Virus record (IMG/VR): IMGVR_UViG_2651869781_000018
Length of the DNA stretch: 33,021 bases
Direction: 5' to 3' (one strand)
DNA from: a virus
Lineage: Duplodnaviria; Heunggongvirae; Uroviricota; Caudoviricetes
Below, piece by piece: positions 4,338-9,632 of the stretch. Positions within the stretch are counted from its first letter, which is position 1, and every line of letters starts with the position of its first letter. Under the pieces are notes generated by a model. It was not told the DNA's origin. It searched no databases and worked only from the letters and a program-made list of their open reading frames with translations. A program made the position numbers and the translations under genes.

Positions 4338-7160
4338 ATGACGGCAGAGTACATCAGGGACTGGCAACAACCGCGCCACGCAGTGGGGCGTGAAGGAACG
4401 GGGATCCCCGCTCCTGAATCCGCGCTTTCCTCCTGGCTGGATGCCTACCGGGTAGAGAACGAGCGCCGCCAGGAAATGGCTGATGCGGCGTTCTCCGCCA
4501 CGCCACTGGGCAACCTGATTAATAAAAGCCTGGACGCACAGGAAAAACAGGACAAAACCATCACACTGGCAGGAGACGCCAGAAAACAGGCACGCGGCGC
4601 GGTGGATGAAGCCATGGCCTCGCTGCGCCTGCTGCCGTCCTATCTGCGCGATCCGCTTATTCGCCACCTCTCCTTCCTGCGCAAAAAACAGGAAGCCGAT
4701 CGCCGGAAAGGCAAAAAGAGCTGGCAGGCGGAACGCTATGCACGCGGAACCCTGCGCAAAATATTCGAACGTCTGGATCGCACTGACGGACACTGGCTGA
4801 CACCGGGTTATCGCTCCCTTGCCGGACGCGAACGCCTGGACGATTTGCTTTACCTGCCGCAGCTCAACAAACACCAGATACAGACGCTGGCCACCATGAC
4901 GGCGGCGATGTTCAGCAGCACCTTCGAAAAACTCTGCGATGGCTTTGGCGCGACCGATGGCGAACTGACCATGGATGTAACGCTGAAGGCGTATCAGATG
5001 CTGGCCCGCATGGCGTTACACCTGCACATCATGCCTCCACATTATGACGCACTGACAACAGATAAAGACCGGAGGAACGAACCGGACACGGAGCTGCTGC
5101 CGGGCGCAATCCTTCGCCTGACCTGTGCGGAATGGTGGAAACGCAAACTGTGGCTGTTACGTTGCGAGTGGAGAGAAGAACAACTCCGCGCCGCCTGTCT
5201 GGTTTCCAGAAAAACATCACCCTATCTGAGCCAGGACGCGTTAAGCGAGTTTCGCGCACAGCGCGAGAAAACACGCGATTTCCTGAAAAGTTTCATGCTG
5301 GAAAACGAAGACGGGTTCACGATTGATCTCGAGACAGTGTATTACGCGGGAGTAAGTAACCCGGTTCACCGTAAGGCAGAAATGATGGCCACCATGAAGG
5401 GGCTGGAACTTCTGGCCGAAGCCCGTGGCGACAAAGCGGTGTTTCTAACTGTCACCTGCCCGTCAAAATACCACGCCACAACAGAGAACGGTCATCCGAA
5501 TCCCAAATGGAACGGGGCCACCATGCGCGACTCCAGCGATTACCTGGTTAACACGTTTTTTGCAGCGGTCCGCAAGAAACTGAACCGCGACGGCCTGCGC
5601 TGGTATGGCATCCGCACGGTGGAGCCTCACCATGACGGCACCGTGCACTGGCATATGATGGTCTTTGCTCATCCGGAAGAAATCGACACCATTGTGTCCC
5701 ACACCCGCGATATTGCCATTCAGGAAGATCGTCACGAGCTGGGTGATGATATTACCCCACGCTTTAAGGCGGAGTACGTCGACGGCTCAAAAGGCACGCC
5801 AACCAGCTACATCGCCACCTACATCGGAAAGAACCTGGACAGCCGCGCCGTGGATGGCATCGACCCGAAAACGGGCAAGCCACGCGTTGACCACGAAACA
5901 GGTAAATCAATGGCCGAGAGCGTGGAGCGAGCCATCGGCTGGGCGCGCCTTCACCGGGTCCGCCAGTTCCAGTTCTTTGGCATCCCCTCCCGTCAGGTGT
6001 GGCGTGAACTCCGCCGCCTTGCCAGCCAGATGGCACGCAACCCGGAAGGCCCGCAACGGCTGAAGGATGACGCAATGGATGCGGTACTCGCTGCCGCTGA
6101 TGCCGGATGTTTTGCCACCTACATTGAAAAACAGGGTGGCGTACTTGTTCCGCGCAAGGACTACCTGATTCGCACAGCCTACGACCTCGCAGATGAGCTG
6201 AACGATTACGGCGAACAGAGTGTACAGATTTACGGGATCTGGTCGCCATTCATCGGGGAATCCTCCCGTGTGTGCACGCATCCGGATAACTGGAAGCTGG
6301 TAAGACGTAAACCGGAAGCGGAAGACAGCGCCCGCGAAAATGGTTTTGACCTTCAGGGCGGCCCTGCCGCCCCTTGGACTCGTGGCAATAACTGTCCCCG
6401 TGTACAGGAAACAGGCAACAACGGGACAGAACAGCCGGAAGAACGGCCAGCACCGTGGCCGCAGCTTCCTGACGGCGTTGAAGTAAATGAATGGATGCGC
6501 TCACTGAAACGGCACGAACGCCGGGCGCTGATGCGTTCGCTTCGTGACAAACAGGCAAAAAACAGCAGCGATGAAATGCAGAACTGGACACAGAGCCGCA
6601 AACAGCAGCGGCCTTTGCCTGATAACCACGAGTTACTCGCTAAAGAATGGCGGGAGTCTGCTGAATCTCTCGGCCTGCATATCGGTGAACAACAGATGCA
6701 GCACCTGTTACGGGGCGGCAGTCTGTACGTTGACGGCAGCATCATTGCACCGCAGGGATTTGAAATTGTACGCAAACCGGATACCCGCCCGGACAGCCGA
6801 ATCACGCAGCTCTGGCAGCGTCTGAGCCGTAATCATGGCGTAAGCAGCACGGAGATCCGCCATAACCCGGTCGCCAGCTATCTGGCACAGCTGGGGGCAT
6901 CAGACCCTGAAGCCGCCGCACGCCTGGCATCCACACTTCAGCAGGACCAGAACACCATGAAAACACCCGTTACCGTGCTTTCTGACATGCTGCGCGCCAT
7001 CCGCGACGCAGAGCACGCACAGAGAATCAGTGAAACCACTGAACGCGCCAGCCGCAAAGCAGACCTGCTGCGGGGTGGCCTGACCAGTGGAAACAAAAAA
7101 CAGACAGAAACGGGACTCACGAATCCCGTAAATGAGCAAAAAACGCGCAGCGATATATGA
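4338..7160 (+). CDS. A: Rolling-circle replication initiator endonuclease, P2 gpA family (HUH relaxase-like), 940 aa
   Basis: HUH metal-binding motif HWHMMVF and paired-tyrosine motif YIATYIGKN; position and size consistent with P2 A but about 180 aa longer than P2 A as remembered, with a charged, Q/R-rich C-terminal extension. Confidence 0.9.
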   Translation: MTAEYIRDWQQPRHAVGREGTGIPAPESALSSWLDAYRVENERRQEMADAAFSATPLGNLINKSLDAQEKQDKTITLAGDARKQARGAVDEAMASLRLLPSYLRDPLIRHLSFLRKKQEADRRKGKKSWQAERYARGTLRKIFERLDRTDGHWLTPGYRSLAGRERLDDLLYLPQLNKHQIQTLATMTAAMFSSTFEKLCDGFGATDGELTMDVTLKAYQMLARMALHLHIMPPHYDALTTDKDRRNEPDTELLPGAILRLTCAEWWKRKLWLLRCEWREEQLRAACLVSRKTSPYLSQDALSEFRAQREKTRDFLKSFMLENEDGFTIDLETVYYAGVSNPVHRKAEMMATMKGLELLAEARGDKAVFLTVTCPSKYHATTENGHPNPKWNGATMRDSSDYLVNTFFAAVRKKLNRDGLRWYGIRTVEPHHDGTVHWHMMVFAHPEEIDTIVSHTRDIAIQEDRHELGDDITPRFKAEYVDGSKGTPTSYIATYIGKNLDSRAVDGIDPKTGKPRVDHETGKSMAESVERAIGWARLHRVRQFQFFGIPSRQVWRELRRLASQMARNPEGPQRLKDDAMDAVLAAADAGCFATYIEKQGGVLVPRKDYLIRTAYDLADELNDYGEQSVQIYGIWSPFIGESSRVCTHPDNWKLVRRKPEAEDSARENGFDLQGGPAAPWTRGNNCPRVQETGNNGTEQPEERPAPWPQLPDGVEVNEWMRSLKRHERRALMRSLRDKQAKNSSDEMQNWTQSRKQQRPLPDNHELLAKEWRESAESLGLHIGEQQMQHLLRGGSLYVDGSIIAPQGFEIVRKPDTRPDSRITQLWQRLSRNHGVSSTEIRHNPVASYLAQLGASDPEAAARLASTLQQDQNTMKTPVTVLSDMLRAIRDAEHAQRISETTERASRKADLLRGGLTSGNKKQTETGLTNPVNEQKTRSDI

Positions 7161-7208
7161 AGCGCGCACAAAACAGGCAAAAACGGGATTTCAGAATCCC
7201 GTAAACGA
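7097..7208. repeat. Two ~39-bp direct repeats (about 7097..7135 and 7170..7208), each containing a hyphenated dyad ACGGGA-N8-TCCCGT, straddling the stop codon of A and lying just upstream of parM
   Basis: AAAACAGaCAgAAACGGGActcacGAATCCCGTAAAtGA versus AAAACAGgCAaAAACGGGAtttcaGAATCCCGTAAAcGA read directly from the sequence; 73-bp period. Confidence 0.6.
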
Positions 7209-8512: not shown

Positions 8513-8640
8513 AAGCATCTGCGCGAAAAATGCTCACGTTTATAGAGACAGTATCATTCCATTTGGCACACTTACTTCAATAATCGATCTGTTAAACAAA
8601 TAGATTGTCTATTATCTATCGATTAAAACGATCAATTATC

Positions 8641-8668
8641 TTGACAGTAATGTGCCTTTTTGTAAGAT
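8641..8668 (+). promoter_or_regulatory. Candidate sigma70 promoter (TTGACA, 16-bp spacer, TAAGAT), preceded by operator-like dyads (8583..8640) and followed by a dyad overlapping the predicted start site (8673..8702)
   Basis: Perfect -35 hexamer and a 4/6 -10 hexamer at correct spacing read from sequence; flanking ATAGA-N3-TCTAT and CGCAtTGT-N10-ATAATTGCG dyads. Confidence 0.4.
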
Positions 8669-8710
8669 CGTTCGCATTGTGAGCGACAAGATAATTGCGC
8701 GGCATTGTCC

Positions 8711-8859
8711 ATGCAAAACGCCCCAATAGCAGCAACTATTGGGGCGTAAAACTCGGTCGGACTCACTTAACCTGATATGCGTGCCTTCCGAAGTAAATCA
8801 AAATGTGCGTCGTATATTTTATTGCTTACACGCACCTCTGTAAAGGCACGCATATTTTT
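8711..8859 (+). ncRNA. Structured leader or small RNA candidate: 13-codon mini-ORF wrapped in a perfect 12-bp hairpin (8718..8747), then a long nested stem-loop (8777..8853) ending in TTTTT immediately before the RBS of the 89-aa gene
   Basis: Inverted repeats ACGCCCCAATAG/CTATTGGGGCGT and ATGCGTGCCTT/AAGGCACGCAT with inner GTGCGT/ACGCAC, followed by a T5 run; seen in sequence. The function (sRNA, attenuator or terminator of parMR) cannot be decided from sequence. Confidence 0.3.
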
Positions 8860-8876
8860 CCTATGAGGTAAATAAA

Positions 8877-9146
8877 GTGCGGGCTAAAACAGGTATTTGC
8901 AAGAACCCTCATCGTTATAATCCAACATTTCTGTCTCTCCCTGAATATCAAGGACAAGAAGGTCGGCACAAATGCGCTGCCTGTGCTTTTGAGCTAGGCA
9001 TAAAAGATGCGCTTGAAGGACGCGCTATGGCTCAGAATGATTTAGTTTTAGCTAACATTCCGTTTAGCCAGGCTGGAACTGTAAGGCACAGAGATGCCTA
9101 TGAAGCATATGTTCGTGGTTGGCGATTAATAAACAGCAACAATTGA
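8877..9146 (+). CDS. Hypothetical 89-aa protein in the A-to-cos cargo slot (GTG start)
   Basis: GTG start with GAGGT Shine-Dalgarno 7 nt upstream; followed by a canonical hairpin plus T-run terminator; no family recognised. Confidence 0.55.
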   Translation: MRAKTGICKNPHRYNPTFLSLPEYQGQEGRHKCAACAFELGIKDALEGRAMAQNDLVLANIPFSQAGTVRHRDAYEAYVRGWRLINSNN

Positions 9147-9149
9147 TAC

Positions 9150-9178
9150 TTTTGAAGCGCCGATAAGGCGCTTTTTTT
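9150..9178 (+). terminator. Rho-independent terminator (GAAGCGCC-GATA-AGGCGCTT followed by TTTTTTT)
   Basis: GC-rich perfect stem and T7 tract directly after the 89-aa ORF stop. Confidence 0.65.
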
Positions 9179-9179
9179 G

Positions 9180-9632
9180 TTTGCACGATAGTGCACAAGT
9201 TTGCACAATTTTTTTGAACGACTTTTTGTACTTCCGGCCCGCGTGGTGGCTGGATCCGTCAAGGATCCGTACGTGCACAAAAAAACGCGTTTTTTCTGCG
9301 CGCAGGTGACGGGGGAACAGCCCGCGTTTCAGGGGGTAAATAGCATTCCCTGAACGATGTCGCAGAGATACAACAGAATGGCCATATTTCTCACGCTGAG
9401 CATGAAAAAGACGTGAGAGCTTTTGATTTGATGGGGTGAAAGGTAAGGCCGTCAAAATCGCACTGAGACGGCGAGAACATGCAGTCAACGCGGTGGGATT
9501 GCGTAAGAGTCTGACTGTCGATGATGGCAATCAGCAGGAAAGCGTCGTGAAATTATCTGATTGATACAGGAGCTGGAGAGTCGGGGCATAAATTTTTTAT
9601 GCCCCGGCGAAGCAGCAGACAAGCGAAGCGCG
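9180..9632. other. Non-coding region expected to contain cos (the packaging site), by synteny between the A-side cargo and the 3' end of portal gene Q; exact cohesive-end site not assigned
   Basis: Position equivalent to P2 cos; contains TGCAC-rich direct/inverted repeats (9181..9215), the palindrome AAAAAACGCGTTTTTT (about 9283..9298), a G-rich 19-mer GGTGACGGGGGAACAGCCC (about 9307..9325) with partial resemblance to remembered P2/186 cohesive ends, and a hairpin CGGGGCAT..ATGCCCCG (about 9582..9606) downstream of Q. Confidence 0.3.

Follow-up and report, generated by a model that had tools for sequence, protein, structure and literature searches.

A probable antisense-RNA-gated leader in front of exchangeable cargo genes of enterobacterial prophages

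The control of a gene by a small RNA made from the opposite strand is familiar from several systems. In the immI region of phage P22, the sar RNA (68-69 nt; Rfam RF00262) starts from a promoter that lies inside ant and faces the mRNA promoter Pant, overlaps the ribosome-binding site (RBS) and start codon of ant, and is terminated by a GC-rich hairpin whose U tract is poor. In IS10, RNA-OUT, of about 70 nt, covers the RBS of the transposase, and the promoter pIN is Dam-sensitive. In R1, the target of the antisense RNA CopA, CopT, lies well upstream of the start codon, and CopA probably works through the structure of the leader rather than by covering the RBS. In hok/sok, alternative folds of the leader hide the translation start, and a short antisense promoter faces inward upstream of the open reading frame (ORF). 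Here we analyse a region of comparable layout at positions 8583-8876 of a 33,021-nt stretch of viral DNA (IMG/VR record IMGVR_UViG_2651869781_000018, hereafter the window), immediately upstream of a gene encoding an 89-residue (89-aa) protein. This region is probably a conserved and portable leader gated by an antisense RNA, with the following features, where P+ and P- denote the promoters of the plus and minus strands and SD the Shine-Dalgarno sequence.

8580-8639, no strand: upstream dyads, palindromes of the ATCGAT / CTGTTAAACA type with GATC at 8586 and 8630 (inverted repeats I1 and I7)
8633-8697, no strand: perfect 11-bp inverted repeat CAATTATCTTG/CAAGATAATTG bracketing P+ (I4; arms 8633-8643/8687-8697)
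8641-8668, plus: promoter P+, TTGACA-16-TAAGAT (TTGACA 8641-8646, TAAGAT 8663-8668; 10/12 consensus matches)
8675-8876, plus: predicted 5' leader of the 89-aa mRNA, about 200 nt, from the fold and from an architecture that is also predicted in other types
8712-8750, plus: mini-ORF of 13 codons including the stop, from ATG at 8712 to TAA at 8750, encoding MQNAPIAATIGA; no SD
8712-8809, minus: predicted antisense small RNA, about 98 nt, its ends deduced from P- and from the hairpin with TTTTG
8714-8747, minus: intrinsic terminator of the predicted antisense RNA (12-bp stem, loop UUGCUG, tail UUUUG)
8775-8855, plus: long nested hairpin with perfect 13-bp outer arms (8775-8787/8843-8855) and an inner hairpin at ~8803-8836
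8844-8816, minus: promoter P-, TTTACA-17-TAAAAT (-35 at 8844-8839, -10 at 8821-8816)
8855-8859, plus: T run after the long hairpin, possibly the tail of a plus-strand terminator or attenuator, or a U-rich spacer before the SD
8865-8879, plus: SD GAGGT (8865-8869) and GTG start codon (8877-8879), read from the sequence
8877-9146, plus: cargo gene for the 89-aa protein (phrog_3941), with two repeats of SQ(A/G)GxxRHK...AYxxG
9154-9181, plus: intrinsic terminator closing the cassette, found by a terminator scan (GAAGCGCCGATAAGGCGCTTT then TTTTGTTT)

Relation to described antisense systems

P22 sar/ant is the closest analogue of the cassette. As for sar, a small antisense RNA is predicted from a promoter that faces the mRNA promoter, and it would end at a GC-rich hairpin followed by a poor U tract. 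The sar terminator, AAGCCCTGACTG-TTACCG-CAGTTGGGGCTT, has a stem nearly identical to that of one related locus (L070) and a loop identical to that of one related cassette type (W2, see below). P22 ant can be set beside the Bro-N gene that forms one alternative cargo of the leader; Bro-N proteins are often annotated as antirepressors. Unlike sar, the antisense RNA of the leader would not overlap the RBS: its predicted start at ~8809 compares with an SD at 8865, and the -35 motif of its promoter lies ~33-46 nt upstream of the start codon in 21/21 representative loci. Unlike P22 immI, the cassette carries no arc or mnt gene. In the window, the Rfam sar model reached 22 bits (E = 0.1), against a gathering score of 43, over the terminator hairpin only (model positions 34-63), and it gave no match at E <= 1 in seven related loci. 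As sar covers the ant RBS and its Rfam model is not matched, the cassette is not a member of the sar family.

The other three systems resemble the cassette more loosely. As in IS10 RNA-IN/RNA-OUT, facing promoters enclose GATC sites, at both P+ and P- in most cassette types, and an antisense RNA would be directed against the 5' end of the mRNA; unlike in IS10, this RNA stays off the RBS, and there is neither a transposase nor any sequence similarity. As in R1 CopA/CopT, the target lies well upstream of the start codon, and the best sub-threshold Rfam match in the window was to a countertranscript RNA (ctRNA_pGA1, E = 0.074, hairpin only). R1 uses a leader peptide, tap, that is translationally coupled to repA, whereas no leader ORF is conserved in the cassette, whose cargo is not a replication gene and which has no family-level match. 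The resemblance to hok/sok is one of general layout only, and lies in leader folds that can hide the translation start and in the short inward-facing antisense promoter upstream of the ORF. In contrast to hok/sok, the cargo is not a small hydrophobic toxin, it can be exchanged for a Bro-N gene, and homologues of the 89-aa protein exist without the module.

At the gathering threshold, Rfam 15 gave no match in the window, nor inside the module of 12 related loci; in two of these loci it matched an unrelated tRNA and sRNA-Xcc1 elsewhere. Sub-threshold matches in the window (ctRNA_pGA1, sar and Spot 42) covered the hairpin only. No description of such a cassette was found in the literature that we searched. 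The kind of control is familiar; the cassette itself is in no RNA database. It does have two features expected of a cis-encoded antisense RNA, namely a conserved sigma-70 promoter on the opposite strand of the 5' untranslated region and a covarying minus-strand terminator.

The facing promoters and their conservation

The first-pass annotation of this DNA had pointed out a near-consensus promoter with flanking dyads, which our analysis recovered as P+, with a predicted transcription start at ~8675. On the opposite strand, within the long hairpin of the leader, lies P-, which matches the consensus as well as P+ does and is directed back at it, so that two sigma-70 promoters face each other about 135 bp apart. 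The -10 hexamer of P- (TAAAAT) falls in the loop of the inner hairpin, and its -35 hexamer ends 33 nt upstream of the 89-aa start codon. The second element of the minus strand is the 12-bp hairpin (perfect stem 8718-8729/8736-8747, loop of 6 nt). On the minus strand TTTTG comes after it, on the plus strand TAAAAC; a T run is thus present on the minus strand only. The combination of P- and of this hairpin with its TTTTG predicts an antisense RNA of ~98 nt, extending from ~8809 to ~8712 and fully complementary to the middle of the mRNA leader (8712-8809). We found no conserved ORF on the predicted antisense strand, and RefSeq annotates no RNA gene in the leader region.

Both RNAs are predicted to be structured. 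The plus-strand RNA 8675-8862 folds at -65.9 kcal/mol, far better than 200 shuffled sequences (z = -5.85), and the minus-strand RNA 8710-8809 has a z of -3.79. This supports the earlier view of the region as a structured regulatory leader rather than a simple intergenic spacer. That view had hesitated between an attenuator and a cis-encoded small RNA; the small RNA is the best reading, but on the opposite strand, with the 12-bp hairpin as its terminator. We infer from the sequence that both RNAs are produced, and likewise their ends and the direction and mechanism of the control.

We compared the relatives of the 89-aa protein. Distant relatives (50-63% identity) have the same layout upstream. 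A relative lies between the Q antiterminator and lysis genes of a Providencia lambdoid phage, another just downstream of cI in a Salmonella P22-like phage, and further ones in E. coli lambdoid prophages and on ~45 IMG/VR contigs. Their upstream sequences form five types (W, the type of the window, W2, P, S and Y), which are mostly unalignable with one another and have one architecture in common: a plus promoter, a GC-rich hairpin of 9-13 bp, an inner hairpin and an invariant TGTAAAG located ~33-46 nt before the start codon. In several other types, an outer stem closing just after TGTAAAG is also predicted, from unrelated sequences. The comparisons below were made on a representative set of 21 divergent loci from P2-like, P22-like and lambdoid phages, which are related to one another.

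In all 21 representatives, a plus promoter with 8-10 of 12 consensus positions is found 195-261 nt upstream of the start codon. The conservation of the minus promoter is stricter in form. Read on the minus strand, TGTAAAG contains the -35 hexamer TTTACA (TTTACT once), and in 21/21 loci exactly 17 variable nucleotides separate it from TAnnnT. The invariant columns of our alignment (A3) coincide with the hexamer positions of P-, while the spacer and the inner bases of the -10 hexamer vary. We take an invariant TTTACA, 17 variable bases and TAnnnT to mark a sigma-70 promoter rather than an RNA stem or a protein site.

The terminator stem is conserved in a different way. It occurs as 24 distinct sequences comprising 244 Watson-Crick pairs, with three to five different Watson-Crick pair types at each of positions 1-6 from the loop; G.U pairs number 6 if the stem is taken as minus-strand RNA and 0 if it is taken as plus-strand RNA. 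The 12-bp hairpin stem, for which the first-pass annotation had looked to conservation and covariation, is thus kept and covaries in related loci. In most homologous loci, the predicted antisense RNA measures 69-77 nt. Within the window type, 35 near-identical copies differ at only 7 of the 294 positions between 8583 and 8876. As a separate observation, the hairpin loop is inverted in a few loci: L054 and L087 differ from their close relatives L004 and L084 (CGGCAA vs TTGCCG, CGTCAA vs TTGACG) with an unchanged stem, as if the palindrome had been flipped.

A mini-ORF of 13 codons embedding a perfect 12-bp hairpin, another element of the first-pass annotation, is indeed found in the window (8712-8750, stem within 8718-8747). 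Across the cassette types, neither strand has a conserved small ORF, and an equivalent of the mini-ORF is missing from S, P and Y. Since it is not conserved in related cassettes, it most likely arose by chance and is probably not functional.

The leader is not tied to the 89-aa gene. We scanned viral contigs for the core of the S type (TTGAGATCTC...TGTAAAGC) and obtained 57 loci. The 89-aa family lies downstream in 29 of them. Ten others carry the same leader, down to GATGCCATCTTTTT, in front of a gene for a 233-aa protein with a Bro-N domain; this version is located downstream of a cI-like repressor, and its sequence diverges from that of the 89-aa version at the SD. The remaining 18 matches appear chance-like, as judged by eye. 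Conversely, the 89-aa protein has homologues on plasmids (39-54% identity), and the two of these that were read lack such a leader. The presence of the leader before an unrelated Bro-N gene and its lack in the plasmid homologues indicate a portable regulatory module, not an antitoxin bound to the 89-aa protein. At the level of sequence, the comparison of the related loci shows that the two promoters are conserved, as are the hairpin and the architecture as a whole, and that the leader is separable from its cargo.

Upstream of P+, the dyad arms 8580-8605/8614-8639 are 73% complementary, with a perfect match between TAATCGAT and ATCGATTA (8581-8588/8618-8625). The 11-bp inverted repeat that brackets P+ has a chance expectation of ~0.004 by a rough estimate; type W2 lacks this repeat. 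Among the loci that we fetched, the motif ATCGATCTGTTAAACA is confined to the two P2-like cassette types, W and W2 (L042-L046), and the ATCGATCTGTTAAACA dyads are missing downstream of parR in P88 and vB_EcoM-705R2, phages that have parMR with another cargo. The dyads therefore belong to the cassette and not to parMR, and those at 8580-8639 may be operators. A look by eye, in place of a formal scan, revealed no LexA/SOS box (CTGT-N8-ACAG) near P+ in the W or S types. The W2 variant has in addition a second ORF of 95-105 aa (…DDPTKTAADR.RFSR.EGYEVL…) 3' of the 89-aa homologue (L045 2333-2620, L046 2309-2626), which is absent from the window.

Possible mode of action and alternative readings

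Under the antisense reading, P+ would produce an mRNA composed of the ~200-nt structured leader and the 89-aa ORF and ending at its own terminator, and P- a non-coding RNA of ~98 nt ending at the 12-bp hairpin and UUUUG. Pairing of this RNA with the leader would keep the cargo gene off. It would sequester the left arm of the long hairpin, leaving the right arm free to close over the SD and start codon; cleavage of the duplex by RNase III and the collision of convergent polymerases are possible additions. The leader and its antisense RNA would form a portable unit, behind which the cargo is exchanged at the SD. In the window, once the left arm is no longer accessible, its right-hand partner GGCACGCAU can form pairs with GUGCGGGCU at the start codon (-10.5 kcal/mol). 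In S-type leaders, RNAalifold predicted a long stem (GAAUGUUUU/AAAGCAUUC), an inner hairpin and a hairpin that sequesters the SD, the latter with two compensatory changes (GC to AU and CG to UA). Moreover, several types have a near-copy of the translation start region within the antisense target (GTGCTTGAATG vs GTGCTTTATG in L084; GTGCG in the window). This suggests a three-part switch, in which the target and start regions compete for the same partner and pairing with the antisense RNA takes the target out of the competition.

Several observations weigh against this reading or limit the support for it. The U tract of the predicted antisense RNA is short, UUUUG in the window and UUUCCCUUAU in most relatives. 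The consensus match of P+ is not significant by itself, with 2 such sites in 3 kb for 2.6 expected; its weight comes from its conservation in other phages. In favour of the reading, a model built from the other four types, with no window-type sequence, had its two best matches across the 33-kb window at 8847-8807 and 8751-8709 (both minus strand), but with E of only ~1 each; a first covariance model had a poor consensus structure, derived from a MAFFT alignment (4 bp, misplaced), and served as a sequence profile only. The alternative hairpin at the start codon in the window, which the reading calls for, is weak and not significantly stable (z = -1.1). Also in its favour, when the antisense target is blocked, the predicted accessibility of the start region of the gene falls in 16/21 leaders (mean 0.38 to 0.28), but these leaders are not independent, the comparison has no control in which another region is blocked, and the drop is small in the window (0.53 to 0.44). 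Finally, several S-type leaders are predicted to keep the SD closed with or without bound antisense RNA, so that this RNA could act in another way or even activate.

An arrangement confined to the plus strand would account for part of the region: transcripts from P+ would stop, as an RNA of ~185 nt, at the long hairpin with its T run, and regulated read-through would express the 89-aa gene. A nested stem-loop ending in T5 and abutting the RBS had been described initially; the hairpin and the T run are present, but the run stops 5 nt short of the RBS. The perfect 13-bp outer stem is directly followed by TTTT(CC), the leader is strongly structured, as its z of -5.85 indicates, and a T run before the SD is shared by types W, W2 and S. 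Yet the stem encloses 55 nt, which is atypical of an intrinsic terminator, and our terminator scan did not report it. Type Y has no T run, and in the S type the run forms the loop of the SD-sequestering hairpin; an attenuator is thus possible for the window type, not in general. Attenuation leaves unexplained both the opposite-strand TTTACA, 17 nt, TAnnnT pattern of the 21 loci and the G.U pairs that are seen on the minus strand only. We consider attenuation as the sole function unlikely, while noting that it is compatible with an antisense RNA.

The distribution of Dam sites (GATC) raises a further idea about the antisense gate. GATC is rarer than expected in the whole window (81 found, 118 expected), and three copies are present within 8586-8669. 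Across the 21 representatives, the module has a GATC density of 15.0 per kb and the flanks one of 2.3 per kb (~6.5-fold enrichment). A GATC is located 10-11 nt upstream of the -35 hexamer of P+ in 20/21 loci, at the edge of its -10 hexamer in W, W2 and some S, near the start site of P- in 18/21 and in the P- spacer in 13/21; in the window type, fixed GATC sites are found at P+ only. The cassette could be a portable methylation-sensing switch, fully methylated prophage DNA favouring the antisense RNA and thereby silencing the cargo, and under-methylated DNA, i.e. incoming or rapidly replicating phage DNA, favouring the mRNA, but we regard this as a speculative extension with rather low odds. 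If true, any cargo, the 89-aa protein or Bro-N, would be expressed only upon infection or induction. The fixed Dam sites allow a direct test of a link to the replication or infection state.

A type I toxin-antitoxin system, with the 89-aa protein as a toxin, the antisense RNA as its unstable antitoxin and stabilization of the prophage as the outcome, would fit the hok/sok-like order of leader, inward-facing antisense promoter and downstream ORF, and the tendency of the leader to hide the translation start. The antitoxin-like reading, which had been raised at first, loses its support when the cargo is considered. The 89-aa protein is hydrophilic and not a small membrane peptide, it has no toxin match in PADLOC or Pfam, and its domain occurs as an accessory module fused to HNH, NOV_C, DndB and WYL. 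An identical leader drives the unrelated Bro-N protein, and the two plasmid homologues that were read do without the leader and the antisense promoter. Such a system is improbable here.

Least credible of all is an element acting at the DNA level only, as parC centromere/parMR operator or as phage repressor operators: despite the position immediately downstream of parR, several perfect palindromes, the 11-bp inverted repeat around the promoter and the clustering of GATC, P88 and vB_EcoM-705R2 carry parMR without the dyads, P22-like and lambdoid phages devoid of parMR have the hairpins and promoters as well, and the stems covary as the sequence changes, which fits RNA pairing rather than a fixed protein site, although the objection holds for the transcribed part only. 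We thus rejected a parC centromere or ParR operator, because the repeats do not travel with parMR, as well as a terminator of the parMR transcript, because the hairpins recur in phages without these genes.

Cargo, genomic setting and significance

The window represents a P2-like E. coli prophage (Peduoviridae, Xuanwuvirus). Its genes are ordered as gpA replication endonuclease, parM, parR, leader region and 89-aa ORF, followed by the portal and terminase genes on the opposite strand. Of 5426 complete E. coli genomes, 166 carry a 701-bp segment of the window type with 95% identity or more, on the chromosome in every case. Since P88 and other related phages have other genes at the same location, the site is a cargo hotspot, between gpA/parMR and the portal gene, in agreement with the location proposed in the first-pass annotation. 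The best explanation of 8570-9181 is a self-contained expression cassette ('moron') inserted in this hotspot. Terminators equivalent to the one that closes it at 9154-9181 are also found 3' of the homologues in L003 and L004.

The cargo protein itself is hydrophilic and made of two repeats of LPxSQ(A/G)GxxRHK..AYxxG. It has no match in Pfam, NCBIfam or PADLOC, and one search for homologous proteins returned near-identical proteins only. Its AlphaFold model has a mean predicted local distance difference test (pLDDT) score of 91, and a fold search with this model gave no significant structural neighbour. A likeness to ribosome modulation factor (RMF) was considered and rejected, the best fold match (2jrm) being non-significant at E = 0.8; we keep it as a weak lead only, together with an hhalign comparison of AYExGxxDGlxG in the 89-aa protein with the RMF motif AHQRGYQAGIAG (A-x3-G-Y-x2-G-x2-G; probability 5.6%). 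The repeat motif (SQ(A/G)GxGRHKCxxCAYxxG) is also found as an end-domain, often in tandem, on HNH, NOV_C (restriction-endonuclease-like), DndB/DGQHR and WYL proteins (P0021, P0047, P0065, P0076, P0099 and P0107). This suggests that the 89-aa repeat is an uncharacterised nucleic-acid-binding or sensor module linked to defence systems, as read from sequence motifs. On an IncF plasmid of E. marmotae (L151, 1192-5264), a homologue lies beside a YoeB/YefM toxin-antitoxin pair and TIR-domain and macro-domain proteins, a neighbourhood that resembles a defence island.

Three other observations concern the surroundings of the cassette. A pair of nearly identical minus-strand hairpins (ACGGGATTC..(A/G)(A/T)CCCGT), both with Ts behind them, is present at 7110-7129 and 7183-7202; one falls in the 3' end of gpA, its partner in the spacer of 76 bp between gpA and parM. 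The two could represent the actual parC or regulatory site of parMR, or else terminators of leftward transcription. Between the cassette terminator and the portal gene, the untranslated region 9180-9330 contains repeated TTTGCAC/GTGCAC motifs and a direct repeat of GGATCCGT at ~9252-9271; a P2-type cos site would be expected there. A full-length match to Rfam sRNA-Xcc1 (L075 2804-2893, minus strand), which at 59.9 bits exceeds the gathering score, lies about 1 kb downstream of the cassette of a Providencia-type contig and has no relation to the leader.

The cargo genes of prophages are usually pictured with a simple promoter and a terminator. The 89-aa gene stands instead behind what would be a conserved two-promoter antisense gate, found again in P2-like, P22-like and lambdoid phages of Escherichia, Salmonella and Providencia and able to serve more than one kind of gene. 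Should the antisense RNA exist, it would add an unannotated RNA family to enterobacterial prophages, provide a handle on the timing of expression of the uncharacterised phrog_3941 family, and offer a compact, transferable off-switch for synthetic use.

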